NCBI GenBank assembly: GCA_035626775.1
Contig: DASPNA010000062.1
Location: 3,480-67,479 of the forward strand
Origin: Thermoanaerobaculia bacterium
Lineage (GTDB): Bacteria; Acidobacteriota; Thermoanaerobaculia; Gp7-AA8
Length of the DNA: 64,000 bases
Reading direction: 5' to 3'
In this document: piece by piece, positions 51,553 through 64,000 of the stretch
Numbering within the stretch: position 1 is the stretch's first letter
Layout: every line of letters begins with the position of its first letter
The notes under the pieces: generated by a model
The model's database searches: none
What the model was told of the DNA's origin: nothing
Seen by the model: the letters and a program-made list of their open reading frames with translations, nothing else
Made by a program: the position numbers and the translations under genes

Positions 51553-51906
51553 TTATAGGACCACCGGCTCGTGCTCGGCGCGGACGGCTTCCTGCTCGAA
51601 CGAGATCAGGTCGTACGCCTTGCTGATCGACCGCACGCGCGCGAAGTGCAGTCCGAACTCGTACATGTAGCGCCAGTAGAAACGAAGAAGGCCGAGGCGG
51701 TTGATCTGACGGACGTGTGCGAGCTCGTGGCGGAGGAGGCGCGCGGCCGAGGCAGGCGCGGCTTTCGCGCTGAGGTAGATGCGCCGGCCGAGGGTAATGC
51801 CGACGACGTCGCGCATCAGCAAGGTACGCAGCCACCACGGATAGCCGACCCGCACTTTCGCGTGTGCGTCGGCGACGGCGTCGGCAACGTCGCGCGGCAA
51901 GTTCAT
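51553..51906 (-). CDS. Small DUF4157-like zincin-motif protein (117 aa)
   Basis: C-terminal part of ORF 51553..52599 from MNLPRD. AARLLRHELAHVRQINR (HExxHxxQ) resembles the DUF4157 metallopeptidase-like motif. The rest of the long ORF is shadow of the MBL gene. Confidence 0.45.
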   Translation of the reverse strand: MNLPRDVADAVADAHAKVRVGYPWWLRTLLMRDVVGITLGRRIYLSAKAAPASAARLLRHELAHVRQINRLGLLRFYWRYMYEFGLHFARVRSISKAYDLISFEQEAVRAEHEPVVL

Positions 51907-58303: not shown

Positions 58304-59689
58304 ATGTCCGCCAACGATCCTCTCCGCTTCCCCTATCGCAGCGAACTGCTCCTGCCGGTGATCGGGCTGGAAGCGGAATTCAAGGTGTTCCTCGACGAGA
58401 AGGAAGTGATTCCGGAGCAGCTGTGGCGCACGCCGGCCGCGTTCATCGAGCGGCCGTTGCTCTCGCGCACGTCGAAGTCGTCGCAGTTACCGACTGGCGG
58501 CGCGGTGTACTTTGACGGTGGCGTGCTCGAGGTCGTCACGCCGGTGATCGAGATCGCGCCGCAATGCACGGCGCGCGTCGTGCGCAGTCTTTGGGAGCAA
58601 CTCGGATTCGTCCGCGATCAGCTCGACCGGTGGGAGAAACGCAATGCGCGCCGCGTGCGGCTGCAGGCGTTCAGTTGCCACTTCAACATCTCCTATGAAG
58701 TGCCGCGCGAGGAACGCGGCCGCAATCGGACCATTCAGAAGCTGGCGTTGCTGCTCGCGCATCTCCTCCCTCTCCCCGTCCTCCTCCTCGCCGCGAACCG
58801 CCAATCCTCCGGCCTCGGCGTCCGGCCACGCCGCGATCGCATCGAGATCACGATGGACTTCACACCCGATCCCGGACTGATGGCGGCGGCGACTGCGCTG
58901 ATCGTCGGCATCGTGCGCGATGTCATCGCGTGGCCGTCGTATCGCATCGAGGAGCTGGCCGCGCGCGGCATTCCGATCGTCGCGGGGATCGCCCCGGGCA
59001 GACATGCGACGCGCAAGGGATGGCTGACGCGCGCACGTCATTTGCCGCGCGATCCGTTCGCCACGCCGGTCGACGAGCGCCTGTGGAAGCTGACCGATGG
59101 GCGGATGCTCTCGATGCGCGAAGTCGCGCTCGGAACGGCGATAAAGTTCGCCGACTCGATCCGCAAGTGCTCGGATCCATTCAGCGATCGCGTGCTCTTC
59201 TCGGTGTTGCACGGCGAGACGCCATCGCTGCTCGAGCTCAAGACCCGTCCACGCGCGTATGAAGATGTCGGTCGCGAAGTGCGCTGGGGCACGACGCTGC
59301 CGGAGCTGCACAATTTCGAGAGTGCGATGACGGCCGATGACGGACCGCGGCGTCGCCGCGCGGATCTCGAAACGCTTGCGCCGCCGTGGCGCGGCGAAGG
59401 GAGCGACCGGCGCGAACGCGTCACGCTGCCTGCGCGAATCGAACGGCGCCGCACGACCGAGCGCCGCGCGAGCGCGCCATCCTCGGCGTCGCCGCGCTTG
59501 TCACGATCGCAATATGAGAAGGTGTTCCGCCAGCTGGCCAGCGGCAAGCGGCTGCAAATCGGCCGGGAGTTGCTCACGCCCGTCGGCGTAAAGGGCTGGT
59601 ATCACGCGGTATTTCGCAATGCGCGCGGCGAAGAACGACTGCTCTCGATCGACGACGTACTCGAGCACATGGACCGCTGGCGGGTGTGA
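58304..59689 (+). CDS. Hypothetical protein (461 aa); N-terminus weakly reminiscent of carboxylate-amine ligase (GCS2) family
   Basis: LLLPVIGLEAEFKVF and GGAVYFDGGVLEVVTP. C-terminal third is Arg/Ser-rich low complexity. Confidence 0.45.
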   Translation: MSANDPLRFPYRSELLLPVIGLEAEFKVFLDEKEVIPEQLWRTPAAFIERPLLSRTSKSSQLPTGGAVYFDGGVLEVVTPVIEIAPQCTARVVRSLWEQLGFVRDQLDRWEKRNARRVRLQAFSCHFNISYEVPREERGRNRTIQKLALLLAHLLPLPVLLLAANRQSSGLGVRPRRDRIEITMDFTPDPGLMAAATALIVGIVRDVIAWPSYRIEELAARGIPIVAGIAPGRHATRKGWLTRARHLPRDPFATPVDERLWKLTDGRMLSMREVALGTAIKFADSIRKCSDPFSDRVLFSVLHGETPSLLELKTRPRAYEDVGREVRWGTTLPELHNFESAMTADDGPRRRRADLETLAPPWRGEGSDRRERVTLPARIERRRTTERRASAPSSASPRLSRSQYEKVFRQLASGKRLQIGRELLTPVGVKGWYHAVFRNARGEERLLSIDDVLEHMDRWRV

Positions 59690-59956: not shown

Positions 59957-61972
59957 ATGCAACGTCTCCTCACCGCCGCAGTGACAACGCTTTTCCTTTG
60001 TCTTCCCGCCTTTGGCGTGGAGACGGTGGCCGGGCTCGATGAGCAGTACTCCGCGCTGAAGGTCGGACCGTCGTCCGCGATGCGTGCGCAGACCTTCGAC
60101 TCGGGTCACATGAAGATCACGCTCAGCGACGGCGCGGCCGCGCCGGTGATGGCCGGATCCGAGGTGATCGGCCTCTACTTCAAGGGCGCGGGCAGCTTCG
60201 AGTACGTTTCGGCGGATCCGGCCGAGGCGGCGGTTGCGGCGACGAACATCCGCAGGGCGACGAAGCTCAAGAGCGAGAAGACCGACAAGGGCCTGGTCAT
60301 CCGCGACAACTTCGACGAAGTGTTTCTGTGGGTCGCCGGACGCGACTTCCCGAAGCCCGCCGGCGGTGGCGGCGCGGCGCTCGAGCAGGCCTTCGCGGCG
60401 CATCGCGAGACCTTCGGACGCGACCGCGACTCCGAAGCGGCGTTTCTCTTCATCCAGCAGAAAATCGACGCGCCGACCACTCCCGTGGTACGGGCGGAAT
60501 TCAAGGGCGGCACGGAGACCATGGTCTATGTCTACGACCCCGTCGTCGCACGTGCCGAAAAGCTCTACAGCTTGCACAAGACCCAGACGACGGTCCGCGA
60601 GTACCAGCAGGCGCTCTGGCCGGTGCTCTTGTCCGAGCAGCTCATCGGACACACGCGCAAGCAGTTCGTCGAGCCGAACTACCTGCTCTTCGATCTGAAC
60701 TACACGCTTGTCGCCTCGGAGAAAAACGACGCGACGCTCGACGTCACCGAAACCATCATCCCGCGCAACCGCGCGCGGCGCGTCTTCCGCTTCTACCAGT
60801 ACGACACGGTCTACGACAACAACAACCGCGCTCGCCGTTACACCGTGCGCTCGGTCAAGGACGAGAGCGGCAAGGACGTGCCGTTCGTCCACCGCCGCAA
60901 CGAGCTGCTGGTTGGGCTGCCGGAGGCGGCGGCGGCGAATACGCCCTTCAAGCTGAAGTTCGACATCGCCGGCGACTTTCTCATTCGTCCCAGCGGCGAC
61001 AGCTACTGGGAGCTCGGCACCGAGCCGTGGTTCCCGCAGCCGGAGCTGAACGGCCAGTACTACACCATCCACTCGACGGTGAAGGTGAAGAAGCCGTACA
61101 TCGCCTTTGCACCGGGCGAGACGGTCCGCCGCGTCGAGGAAGGCGACTACAACGTCGTCGAGAACAAGATCGACAAGCCGGTGCAATTCGCGGTCGTGCT
61201 GGCCGGGCGCTACTTCTACGAGGAAGAGACGCAGAACGGCCTGACGATCCGGGTCGCCTCCTACGCCGGGAAGAATACCCGGGCCATGAAACAGCTCACG
61301 AACCTGGCCTTCAAGATGATCGAGTTCTACGAGCCTTTCCTGGGACCATTCCCTTTCAAGGAATTCAACATCCTCGAGATCAACCAGTTCGGCTATGGGC
61401 AGGCGCCGCCGGCCACGATGTTCATCACCAAGGAAGCGTTCAATCCGATCGGCGCGGAGATGAACCAGATCTTCTCGCAGGGCATCAACCACCGCTTCGC
61501 GCACGAGATCGCGCACCAGTACTGGGGCCACGTGGTGAAGATGGGCTCAGTCGAGGAGCAGTGGGTCACCGAGTCGTTCGCGGAGTACTCGTCGTCGTTC
61601 GTGGTCAAGCAGCTCAAGGGGAAGGCGCAGTACAAGGCGATGGAGAATCGCTGGAAGGCCAACGCGAACGAAGCGAAGGCCGAGTCGTCGATCGCCATGG
61701 CCAACCGTCTGAGCGATCCCGGCAACGACTTCGACGCGTTCATCGATCGCACGCACCTCGTCTACGACAAGGGCGCGTACGTGCTGGCCATGCTGCACAA
61801 GGAGATCGGCGACGACATGTTCCTGTCGTTCCTCCGCAACTATCAGGCGCGTTACGCGTGGAAGTTCGCCACGACGCAGGACATGATCTCGCTGCTCCAG
61901 CAGCTCACGAAGAAGGACTTCACGGAGTTCTTCGAGAAGAACTTCTGGGGCACGGAAATGCCGCAAGGCTAG
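59957..61972 (+). CDS. Secreted M1-family (gluzincin) metallopeptidase-like protein
   Basis: Signal peptide MQRLLTAAVTTLFLCLPAFG. HEIAHQYWGH followed 19 residues later by ESFAEY (HEXXH-X18-E). Confidence 0.8.
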   Translation: MQRLLTAAVTTLFLCLPAFGVETVAGLDEQYSALKVGPSSAMRAQTFDSGHMKITLSDGAAAPVMAGSEVIGLYFKGAGSFEYVSADPAEAAVAATNIRRATKLKSEKTDKGLVIRDNFDEVFLWVAGRDFPKPAGGGGAALEQAFAAHRETFGRDRDSEAAFLFIQQKIDAPTTPVVRAEFKGGTETMVYVYDPVVARAEKLYSLHKTQTTVREYQQALWPVLLSEQLIGHTRKQFVEPNYLLFDLNYTLVASEKNDATLDVTETIIPRNRARRVFRFYQYDTVYDNNNRARRYTVRSVKDESGKDVPFVHRRNELLVGLPEAAAANTPFKLKFDIAGDFLIRPSGDSYWELGTEPWFPQPELNGQYYTIHSTVKVKKPYIAFAPGETVRRVEEGDYNVVENKIDKPVQFAVVLAGRYFYEEETQNGLTIRVASYAGKNTRAMKQLTNLAFKMIEFYEPFLGPFPFKEFNILEINQFGYGQAPPATMFITKEAFNPIGAEMNQIFSQGINHRFAHEIAHQYWGHVVKMGSVEEQWVTESFAEYSSSFVVKQLKGKAQYKAMENRWKANANEAKAESSIAMANRLSDPGNDFDAFIDRTHLVYDKGAYVLAMLHKEIGDDMFLSFLRNYQARYAWKFATTQDMISLLQQLTKKDFTEFFEKNFWGTEMPQG

Positions 61973-61993
61973 CGCGGCTGCGCCGCGCTAGCC
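61969..61993 (+). terminator. Hairpin terminator after M1 peptidase gene
   Basis: ctagcgcggc-tgc-gccgcgctag perfect palindrome overlapping the stop codon. Confidence 0.5.
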
Positions 61994-62304
61994 GTTGGGC
62001 GGTCACCGTCTCGCCTGTCTCGTCTCAGCGAACTTTCGCGACGTTCGCCGTGTCCAATCTCACCGACGCGAATCTCACCAAAGCGAACTTCGCTTCGAAA
62101 CCCCTCCAAATGACGGCAACCCTCGCCGCGGAGAGGCACGGATAGCCACTCGACACCGTATATTACGAAGTCACGCAATTGCCGCTCGGACACCGGCCAG
62201 CATCCCCCTTGGGTTCGTTGCGACGCCAAACGATGTGCGAAGAAAACCCTCCAATTTCTCGTAGAATCTGGATCGAGCGCTATCTGGCGTAGCTAGCTTC
62301 GGCA

Positions 62305-64000
62305 ATGGCCATACACATCCTTAGAGTTGTCGTCGTCTCTCCCGCCGACGTCGGCGCGGAGCGGGACCGCGTCAATGTGGTGGCTGCGGAGATCAACCGG
62401 ACGCTTGGTGACAGGTTCGGAGTCCGCCTCGATGTACTGCGATGGGAAACCGACGTCTATCCGATGTTTCATGTCGAAGGCCCACAGGGACAAATCGATG
62501 ATCTATTGAAGATCGAGGACGCGGATCTCATTATCGGAATCTTCTGGAAACGATTCGGAACTCCCGTGATGGATGCCGATTCAGGAACCGAGCACGAGCT
62601 ACGCAAGGCGTTCGAGGCCTACCGTACCAGGCAGAAACCCGGCGTGATGTTGTACTGCGCAGGGCACCGTACTATCCCGAAACAGAAGCGGAGCTCGAGC
62701 AAGCGGTCAAGGTGACGCGCTTCCGAGACAACCTTTCATCGCAGGCGATCCTCGGGAAGTATGAAGGGCCCCAGGATTTCGAGAACCAACTGCGCGGACA
62801 CCTGACGTCCTGGCTCAATCGACGTTTCCCTGATCGGGTCGAAACCGAGCTCACCTCGGTGGCCATGTTCCAGCCTCCCGTCTTTCACGATCTGATCGTA
62901 CGGCACAGCCATCTCGACCGTCTTCGGGAAGCGCTGCGGACCAAGCCGGTGGTCGCCGCGGAGGGATTATCCGGAACCGGAAAGACCTATCTCGCCTCGG
63001 CCTTCGCTGCCGTTGCGTTGAAGGAGCATCAGTACGCGTACATCTGGTGGCATCCCCCGGAGCCCGAAGAGACACTCGATCGGCTGATGACGTCTTTGGA
63101 AGAGACGGCCGGGCTGGGTCGCGCTTCTTCGGCAGCCCAGTCCCGCATGCTCATGCAACGGCTCGCTGATACCAGCGGATTGCTCATCATCGATGACTTC
63201 GAGCGAGTCGATCAGAACTCATACGCGATGCTGCTTGACGCCGCACGCGGAATTGCTCCGCCCGCACGTCTTCTCCTGCTCAGTAAGACCTTCACGCAAC
63301 CTGATCCGAAGCTCGACGCCGCTCATTTTCTGGTAGGTGGCTTCGACATCGCTGAGCTTCAAACCTACCTCGGCGGTCGCGGCGTGTCCGTTGCCGAGCG
63401 AGCGTTGCAGATGTTGCATGAAAAAACGGACGGCCTGCCGATCGCGGCGTCGATGTTTGCCACGCTGGCCAGTCAGTTCGGCCATGATCCGGAAGAGCTT
63501 CTGCGCGGCTCGATGTCGTGGAAGGACCGTATCCGCTCGTGGTTCGAGAAGATTTCGACGTCGCTGAGCGCCGATTCGCTCAGACTCCTCCGCAGTCTGA
63601 GCGTCAGCGATATTCCGTTCAGTCTTGGGGGCGTGCATGAGGTTGGCCGCAGCTTGCGCCTGGATCGCATCCAGTCTGTGTTCGACGCGCTGCAGATGGC
63701 CTATCTCATCCAACCCTATGCGAGCAACCGATGGCGTTTGCATGCCCTGGTGGCTGCGTTCGCGCGCGAGTCGATGGAGAGGAACGAGATCAAGAACGCG
63801 CATCTGGCCTTTGCTCGTTATTACGAGACTGGTTTCTCGAGACGCTCCGCACCTGTTTTGACGGACTTGGAGTTCAACCACAAAGTCCTTGCAGCTGGTC
63901 ACTACCAGCGGGCCAGCGCCTGGGATCAGTCAGAAAGAATCATAGAAGCGATCGTCAAGCCGGCGAAAGCCCGTGGTGCTTATGAGCTGTTGATCCAGTT
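62305..64000 (+). pseudogene. DUF4062 - STAND P-loop NTPase gene, apparently frameshifted near 62630-62672; runs off window end
   Basis: Frame A 62305..62715 encodes a DUF4062-like domain (RVVVVSPADVGAERDRV ... DADLIIGIFWKRFGTPV ... SGTEHELRKAFEAYRTRQKPGVMLY). Frame A-1 is open from 62502 to the window end. It encodes EAELEQAVKVTRFRDNL..., then Walker A GLSGTGKTYLASAF, Walker B LLIIDDFE and a helical C-terminal region. Confidence 0.6.

Follow-up and report, generated by a model that had tools for sequence, protein, structure and literature searches.

A frameshifted NIR-STAND-TPR gene, probably of antiphage type, inserted between two peptidase genes of a Thermoanaerobaculia bacterium

One gene in two reading frames

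We analyzed a 64,000-nucleotide stretch (the window) of contig DASPNA010000062.1 from the Thermoanaerobaculia bacterium assembly GCA_035626775.1, and in particular a split gene that runs off its right end and combines a DUF4062-like (NIR) domain with a STAND NTPase and a TPR region. An earlier interpretation made from the letters alone (the sequence-only reading) had described this gene as a defence-type candidate or a pseudogene with an internal frame switch. Both of the frames that it had proposed were confirmed by translation. Frame A contains an open reading frame (ORF1) of 136 aa at 62305-62715 on the plus strand, and frame A-1 has no stop codon from 62502 to 63998, preceded by a tga at 62499-62501. 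The third frame of the region contains many stops. The motifs GLSGTGKT and LLIIDDFE, recognized earlier as those of a P-loop NTPase, lie in frame A-1 at 62964-62987 and 63180-63203. The gene does continue past position 64000, as had been anticipated, and its stop codon in a longer identical contig (L002) corresponds to window position 64730. When one base is restored, frames A and A-1 form one protein of 808 aa. The coordinates of the features are listed in Table 1.

The downstream half (ORF2) is annotated by gene callers and by NCBI as a 672-aa protein beginning at GTG 62712, and no ATG, GTG, or TTG is found in frame A-1 between 62502 and that codon. The NCBI entries HYC60157.1 and HYC60158.1, the latter being ORF2, describe the gene halves as two separate hypothetical proteins; they merit annotation as one frameshifted gene.

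Table 1. Coordinates of the split gene and of the non-coding segment preceding it (window positions)
Feature	Position	Strand	Basis
5′ non-coding part of the inserted segment, 59.6% GC	61974..62304		Empty-site comparison with contigs L087-L089
NIR/DUF4062 residues 1-120 (strands betaA-betaD, helices alphaA-alphaC)	62305..62664	+	Frame A translation, PADLOC, alignments, AF2
Glu98 codon (gag) in motif S-G-T-E-H-E-L, predicted catalytic	62596..62598	+	Invariance and position in the model
Interval in which one base is deleted (switch from frame A to A-1)	62656..62669	+	Codon alignment with P0001, family alignment
Out-of-frame tail of ORF1, 16 aa (HRTIPKQKRSSSKRSR), and TGA stop	62665..62715	+	Homologues have no counterpart
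NIR residues 122 to ~175 (alphaD, betaE, alphaE)	62667..62828	+	Frame A-1; PADLOC match continuous over the break
GTG, earliest possible start in frame A-1, ORF2 start	62712..62714	+	Overlaps the ORF1 stop (GTGA)
STAND NOD (NBD-HD-WHD) with Walker A, Walker B, and GLPL-like KTDGLPIA	62901..63773	+	Weak Pfam matches, PDB match, AF2, Foldseek
Start of the helical/TPR sensor, continuing off-window to residue 808	63780..64000	+	Gene in L002, TPR_12, PDB TPR matches

The site of the break was located in an alignment of 11 sequences, comprising the reconstructed protein and ten full-length homologues. Frame A tracks the family through P112-x-x-M115-x-Y117, and frame A-1 tracks it from P122-Y-x-P on. 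The break thus lies between Y117 (tac, 62653-62655) and P122 (ccg, 62667-62669), in tgc gca ggg ca|ccg. In a codon alignment, the nearest relative (P0001) reads ATG CTG TAC TTC AAT ACC GAG CCA TAT, for which the window has atg ttg tac tgc gca ggg ca- ccg tac; exactly one base is absent within 62656-62669. The missing base would most simply have been lost from the ggg run (62662-62664) or from the cc pair (62667-62668), which would then have been ccc in the ancestor. The frame switch had been predicted within 62630-62672, at an aaaccc or ggg run. The observed break falls inside that range and the ggg run is retained as a candidate, whereas the aaaccc run (62635-62640) is excluded because the homology of frame A (P-x-x-M-L-Y) extends downstream of it.

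The break is known from assembled contigs rather than from reads, and it is reproducible among them. The exact 136-aa ORF is present in several contigs of four assemblies, namely ENA ERZ27252492 (on a 70.6-kb contig), JGI 3300021067, Logan SRR7004194, and Logan SRR7004174, and gene callers predict it in all four sources. Comparison of the window with these loci revealed no mismatch in three of the four and a single mismatch, at the first base (56281), in L003. Two differences between L002 and L003 (L002 3977 and 13300) lie at the ends of L003 or beside them, and none falls in the gene. Such agreement among separate runs and pipelines makes a one-off assembly error unlikely. The sequence-only reading had offered an assembly deletion and a genuine frameshift as alternatives; the identical sequence in several assemblies favours the latter and disfavours the former.

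A sequencing or assembly artefact, with one base of a short G/C run undercalled in an organism whose 808-aa gene is intact and functional, would nevertheless explain why an otherwise perfectly conserved 2.4-kb frame carries only one lesion. The data are metagenome-derived, and, being near-identical over up to 14 kb, the assemblies perhaps do not represent independent biological samples. On the other hand, the base is absent from contigs of at least two SRA runs and of the JGI and ENA assemblies, which were produced by different pipelines, and the candidate runs are just 2-3 nt long. Short-read indel errors are rare at runs of this length. We therefore regard an artefact as unlikely, while giving it a small share of the probability. 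A DNA pattern with the extra base at either candidate run was also searched for in metagenome_contigs, which matched neither allele and evidently does not include these samples.

We also considered whether the split could be functional, either because the frame is corrected by a programmed -1 frameshift, slippage, or phase variation, or because ORF1 and ORF2 constitute a two-polypeptide system coupled by GTGA. The stop of ORF1 and the earliest in-frame start of ORF2 overlap in the GTGA at 62712-62715, ORF1 keeps Glu98 and four of the five strands of the domain, and two-gene NIR systems such as Vesta are known. However, the interval 62656-62669 contains neither an X XXY YYZ slippery heptamer nor a long homopolymer, and all ten aligned full-length homologues, including P0001 (810 aa), are single ORFs, none of them split or shifted. 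Programmed recoding at a -1 ribosomal frameshift site is therefore not supported. Furthermore, residues 121-137 are present in neither product, which cuts helix alphaD of the model, no Shine-Dalgarno-like sequence lies at a useful distance from the GTG, and chance could easily produce such a GTGA overlap at the first stop met out of frame. A functional split is thus very unlikely. No diverged copy with the same break was found in the data. One apparent variant of ORF2 (P0087) differed only in that its GTG start was written as V rather than M, and was discarded.

Domains of the protein and their exchange among relatives

DUF4062, renamed NIR, is according to three 2026 preprints a TIR-like NADase that serves as the effector of one Avs2 and of Vulcan, Vesta, Swarozyc, and Evangelion (10.64898/2026.05.01.722283; 10.64898/2026.06.25.731849; 10.64898/2026.09.04.749371). 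The DUF4062-like domain of the sequence-only reading received support from sequence comparisons. The PADLOC model PDC-S60 matched residues 4-172 of the reconstructed protein, across the break, with an E-value of 4e-34; tblastn retrieved RefSeq plasmid genes annotated as 'DUF4062 domain-containing protein' (E = 2e-17, 4e-16, and 9e-12); and PF13271 (DUF4062) was matched by 29 of 56 close homologues sharing 40-50% identity (best E-value 3e-6). The direct match of the protein itself to PF13271 was below the threshold (E = 0.009, 16.7 versus 24.7 bits), so that its family membership rests on the other evidence.

The AlphaFold2 (AF2) model of the N-terminal domain (pLDDT 85, pTM 0.82) has strands at residues 4-11, 40-46, 75-80, 113-119, and 149-153 alternating with helices. 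This five-stranded beta-alpha topology is that reported for Swarozyc (KpSwz), whose cryo-EM structure shows a parallel beta-sheet with five strands, together with five helices, in beta-alpha order, with a TIR-like/flavodoxin-like fold (10.64898/2026.05.01.722283; 10.64898/2026.06.25.731849; 10.64898/2026.09.04.749371). When the N-terminal domain was compared with the PDB by Foldseek, only generic flavodoxin-like folds were retrieved, with no TIR domain among the top 50. A PDB sequence search with the profile of this domain found no solved homologue, and hhalign comparison of NIR with TIR profiles was not significant.

Glu98, in the motif SGTEHEL, was invariant in all 56 aligned N-terminal domains and in 11 of 11 full-length sequences, and is located near the start of the helix that follows the third strand of the model. 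Its sequence context matches those of E108 of PsAvs2, E97 of KpSwz, and E98 of Vulcan, each of which is essential (10.64898/2026.05.01.722283; 10.64898/2026.06.25.731849; 10.64898/2026.09.04.749371). [quoted passage not shown] In the window, the break falls after residue 120, and the whole NIR domain cannot be encoded in one frame.

The middle of the protein is a STAND NOD (NBD-HD-WHD) spanning residues ~200-490, and it is followed by a TPR sensor. Matches to the Pfam families AAA_22, nSTAND1, NB-ARC, and NACHT were all weak. The Walker A (GLSGTGKT), Walker B (LLIIDDFE), and GLPL-type (KTDGLPIA) motifs are present, and the family shows no variation at residues G221, G224, G226, K227, T228, D297, G377, L378, and P379. 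The AF2 model of the NOD had a pLDDT of 90.7. In Foldseek, its matches included 6mfv (PH0952, 3.7e-11), MalT (8bob, TMq 0.75), and Apaf-1 (TMq 0.65-0.69), as well as CED-4, Avs3, and plant NLRs. Consistent with this, hmmsearch of the family profile against the PDB matched 6mfv, a STAND protein with a TPR sensor, at E = 1e-12. The sensor repeats of the C-terminal third, most of which lie beyond the window in L002, were recognized by precomputed TPR_12 matches, and the PDB TPR proteins LGN/Pins and AfsR match profile positions 630-790 (E = 4e-8). The STAND layout of a P-loop NTPase and a helical region was thus read correctly from the sequence, the helical region being TPR. The protein matched no Avs1-5 (AVAST) model: in PADLOC at E ≤ 1, only PDC-S60 and a marginal mad8 were found. 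We therefore call the protein Avs-like in design rather than a member of an Avs family.

Relatives of the gene were found in large numbers. An exhaustive HMMER search of 1.84 billion representative proteins yielded 505 relatives at E ≤ 1e-30, of which about two dozen clusters had the full NIR-STAND-TPR layout. The nearest relative, P0001, is an intact metagenomic protein that spans the break with 73% identity over 99% of the length (E = 1e-266); nine further full-length homologues of 803-898 aa are 35-40% identical. In a relative-rate comparison aimed at decay after the frameshift, for which there was no suitable outgroup, P0001 and P0014 were 81% identical to each other and each was 74-78% identical to the window gene. 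The reconstructed protein had no match when it was scanned against genome_contigs and metagenome_contigs.

Several dozen of the relatives in the HMMER search matched only from residue ~185 on and had other N-termini. In ten of these the N-terminal domain was SIR2_2, TIR_2, a calcineurin-like phosphoesterase (two proteins), CHAT, PNP_UDP_1, an alpha/beta-hydrolase, HD-CE, a protein kinase, or GT4-conflict. Two TIR-STAND-TPR genes occur in Pyrinomonadaceae metagenome-assembled genomes (L008 9518-11908; L009 ~425-2914) and are 34-35% identical over residues 186-804; P0226 also carries a TIR domain. These proteins share the chassis, length, and layout of the window gene and differ from it by a canonical TIR_2 in place of NIR. 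This exchange of TIR_2 for NIR is the most direct evidence that NIR fills an effector slot, and domain exchange of this kind is the mark of a modular conflict system in which one slot takes toxic effectors. NIR-type domains elsewhere are fused to NACHT, NB-ARC-TPR, XerC/D recombinases, SpoIIE, vWA, Roc-COR, and others.

Two side observations concern these fusions. STAND-TPR chassis bearing SIR2, calcineurin-like, CHAT, PNP, alpha/beta-hydrolase, HD-CE, Ser/Thr kinase, or GT4-conflict N-termini are represented by P0223, P0229, P0233, P0237, P0242, P0249, P0250, P0259, and P0279; as far as we have seen, this effector-diverse family apparently has no name in PADLOC v2. In P0018, P0028, P0033, and P0037, a NIR-type N-terminal domain is joined to a XerC/XerD-type tyrosine recombinase, an unusual combination in which a site-specific recombinase accompanies a putative NADase.

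Insertion between housekeeping genes

The neighbours of the gene are of housekeeping type, with LigD, TonB_C, and an M1 peptidase upstream and an M24 (PepQ) peptidase and DUF2721 downstream. None of nine neighbouring proteins had a PADLOC match, and no defence island was found. With no partner effector gene and no defence island around it, the gene is a single-gene system; the partner effector genes that the sequence-only reading had suggested looking for were not found.

In three related contigs (L087-L089), whose M1 peptidases are 80-85% identical to that of the window, the gene order is kept and the M24 gene directly follows the M1 gene, with gaps of 30, 242, and 118 bp. Homology with these contigs ends at the M1 stop codon and restarts ~20 nt before the M24 start. 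The lineage-specific segment bounded in this way measures ~2.8 kb and extends from 61974 to a point equivalent to 64803. The 5′ flank at 62146-62304, which had been noticed as less GC-rich, has 55.3% GC compared with 64.8% for the window and ranks in the lowest 1.6% of 159-bp windows. GC content at third codon positions (GC3) was 0.675 and 0.699 in the two gene halves, compared with 0.843 ± 0.041 (minimum 0.753) in 14 neighbouring genes. The low-GC flank by itself was weak evidence for the foreign origin proposed earlier, which is now borne out by the empty sites and GC3. Because three relatives have empty sites and the GC3 is low, we conclude that the segment is a lineage-specific insertion, and the best reading of these comparisons is a horizontal gain between the M1 and M24 genes. 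A single loss in a clade formed by the three relatives is a less likely alternative. Neither target-site duplications nor terminal inverted repeats flank the insertion, and no tRNA or integrase was found beside it.

The gene context of P0001 is unrelated to that of the window gene. The Chitinophagaceae homologue P0004 (L007 3000-19600) has as its neighbours a fragment of a DnaB_C helicase, an 8xMP membrane protein, IS200-like Y1 and IS91 Y2 transposases, and a tyrosine integrase. In this mobile-element context, the GC content of P0004 was 35.8%, compared with 38.7% for its locus.

Within the inserted 5′ flank and the locus, no Rfam family, sigma70-like promoter, or intrinsic terminator was found. 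A near-perfect hairpin at 61969-61991, CTAGCGCGGC-TGC-GCCGCGCTAG, overlaps the M1 stop codon, where the empty-site homology ends; it was missed by the terminator scan because it has no T-tract. The inserted 5′ part also contains short repeats at 62020-62110 and 62240-62255, namely GCGAA/TTCGC palindromes (62028-62039 and 62082-62094), AATCTCACC occurring twice (~62056-62079), and GAAA(A)CCCCTCCAA occurring twice, 145 bp apart. They might serve as operator-like sites or be left over from the donor context. In L087 (5894-10019), the M1 peptidase is present as a tandem duplicate (678 aa and 672 aa) where the window has one copy.

Predicted function, fate of the allele, and relation to known systems

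The explanation that we consider probable is that the gene is a single-gene NLR/Avs-like antiphage-type system that was acquired horizontally and has now probably been inactivated by a one-base deletion. An antiphage-type role had been suggested from the domain layout; the 2026 literature on DUF4062/NIR NADases and the effector swapping on the STAND-TPR chassis both support it. The mechanism outlined here draws on homology and on what has been published about other NIR and STAND systems. In the intact 808-aa form, the C-terminal TPR array would sense a trigger, by analogy a phage protein. Binding of the trigger would free the STAND NOD to bind ATP by nucleotide exchange and to oligomerize, and the oligomers would cluster the NIR domains. 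Glu98-dependent hydrolysis of NAD+ could then lead to growth arrest or abortive infection.

In the window allele, the reading frame of the NIR domain is interrupted downstream of Glu98, once strand betaD has been encoded. One product would be a 136-aa fragment consisting of residues 1-120 and 16 unrelated residues, in which Glu98 is retained. The other would at best be an effector-less 672-aa STAND-TPR protein re-initiated at GTG 62712, inside helix alphaD. Because residues 121-137, including the first half of this helix, are lost from both products, the two cannot restore the NADase fold, and the sensor is unlikely to be coupled to a functional NADase. The allele is most likely a recent loss of function, or young pseudogene, or at best crippled; it is taken to be recent because the conserved frame bears a single lesion and is intact elsewhere. 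As a cause, one may propose escape from the cost or the autoimmunity that an abortive-infection gene brings, or else drift, but this is speculation. We see only a very slight chance that the allele is alive, either as an on/off contingency state of a costly abortive-infection gene, which would revert when one base (+1) is inserted into the short G/C run, or through cooperation of the free truncated NIR fragment with the effector-less STAND-TPR that GTGA-coupled re-initiation would produce, for example as a decoy or dominant-negative for other NLR-like systems.

Several points weigh against the interpretation of the gene as an inactivated antiphage-type NADase system. The direct Pfam score of the N-terminal domain was sub-threshold, and its Foldseek matches were generic. 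NADase activity is so far attributed to NIR members outside this NIR-STAND-TPR clade, and the NIR domains of NWD1, NWD2, and NPHP3 showed none. The neighbourhood shows no sign of a defence island. The assemblies may come from related samples of one study, in which case the consensus of every assembly would represent one sampled population. Finally, a single lesion with the remaining 2.4-kb frame intact is equally expected of an indel artefact or of an arrangement that still functions.

Some of these points would also fit a non-immune family, in which the protein is a signal-transduction STAND like MalT or AfsR, its N-terminal domain acts in housekeeping nucleotide metabolism or protein interaction, and the frameshift is the loss of a dispensable accessory gene. 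MalT and PH0952, neither of them a defence protein, are indeed among the best structural and sequence relatives of the NOD, the gene is surrounded by housekeeping genes free of PADLOC matches, and certain NIR domains have no detectable NADase activity. However, the protein has no DNA-binding output domain, and its N-terminal domain, with an invariant catalytic Glu, is exchanged with TIR, SIR2, PNP, calcineurin-like, CHAT, HD-CE, and GT4-conflict domains, a typical toxic-effector repertoire. In addition, the distribution of the gene is patchy, non-syntenic, and compositionally foreign, and the domain is common to the PADLOC defence candidate PDC-S60. We therefore consider a non-immune family improbable and retain the antiphage-type interpretation.

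Among described systems, PsAvs2 (Le Mouellic et al., 10.64898/2026.09.04.749371) has the same single-gene order, with a DUF4062/NIR domain containing a conserved Glu, a STAND NTPase, and TPR-type repeats. The window protein differs from it in having no PADLOC Avs match, in a NOD closest to PH0952, MalT, and Apaf-1 (Avs3 ranked 17th in Foldseek), in an N-terminal domain of a divergent subfamily, and in being frameshifted. Swarozyc (KpSwz), Vulcan, Vesta, and Evangelion (10.64898/2026.05.01.722283; 10.64898/2026.06.25.731849; 10.64898/2026.09.04.749371) use the same effector family, with a beta-alpha fold and an essential Glu in an S/T-x-x-E region, and are likewise patchy and horizontally spread. 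Unlike the window gene, they have no STAND NTPase and instead have an AUX domain, HEAT repeats, or a partner phosphatase; activation of the window protein would proceed through NOD oligomerization. The likeness to PDC-S60 is confined to the N-terminal ~170 residues (profile positions 3-168); only 168 of the 906 profile positions match, and the remainder is not homologous to the STAND-TPR part. PH0952 (6mfv) and MalT (8bob) share the NOD (NBD-HD-WHD) followed by a TPR sensor, but have no enzymatic N-terminal effector, the output of MalT being DNA binding, and neither is known as an immune protein.

The locus overturns nothing in current understanding and is a fairly ordinary, broken example of the kind of system described in 2026. 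It nevertheless extends the NIR/DUF4062 NADase effector, known only from 2026 preprints, to an uncultured soil lineage of Acidobacteriota, and ties this effector to a PH0952/MalT-like STAND-TPR chassis, as a compact natural case of effector modularity. With empty sites in relatives and one disabling mutation, it would be a clean natural example of an abortive-infection-type gene that was gained and then rapidly inactivated. It also points to a putative NIR/TIR/SIR2-swapping STAND-TPR family in soil bacteria, and P0001, an intact orthologue, and the paralogues that bear TIR are candidates for experimental work.

Two other ORFs in the window are recorded here as minor observations. A 117-aa ORF at 51553-51906 on the minus strand adjoins a GAF-GGDEF gene and had a weak precomputed Pfam match to eCIS_core, a core domain of extracellular contractile injection systems, and no PADLOC match. 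A 461-aa ORF at 58304-59689 on the plus strand had no Pfam or PADLOC match and occupies the same position in L087-L089. The C-terminal third of its product is very Arg-rich, and its N-terminal motif VIGLEAEFKV is reminiscent of carboxylate-amine ligase/GCS2-type enzymes.

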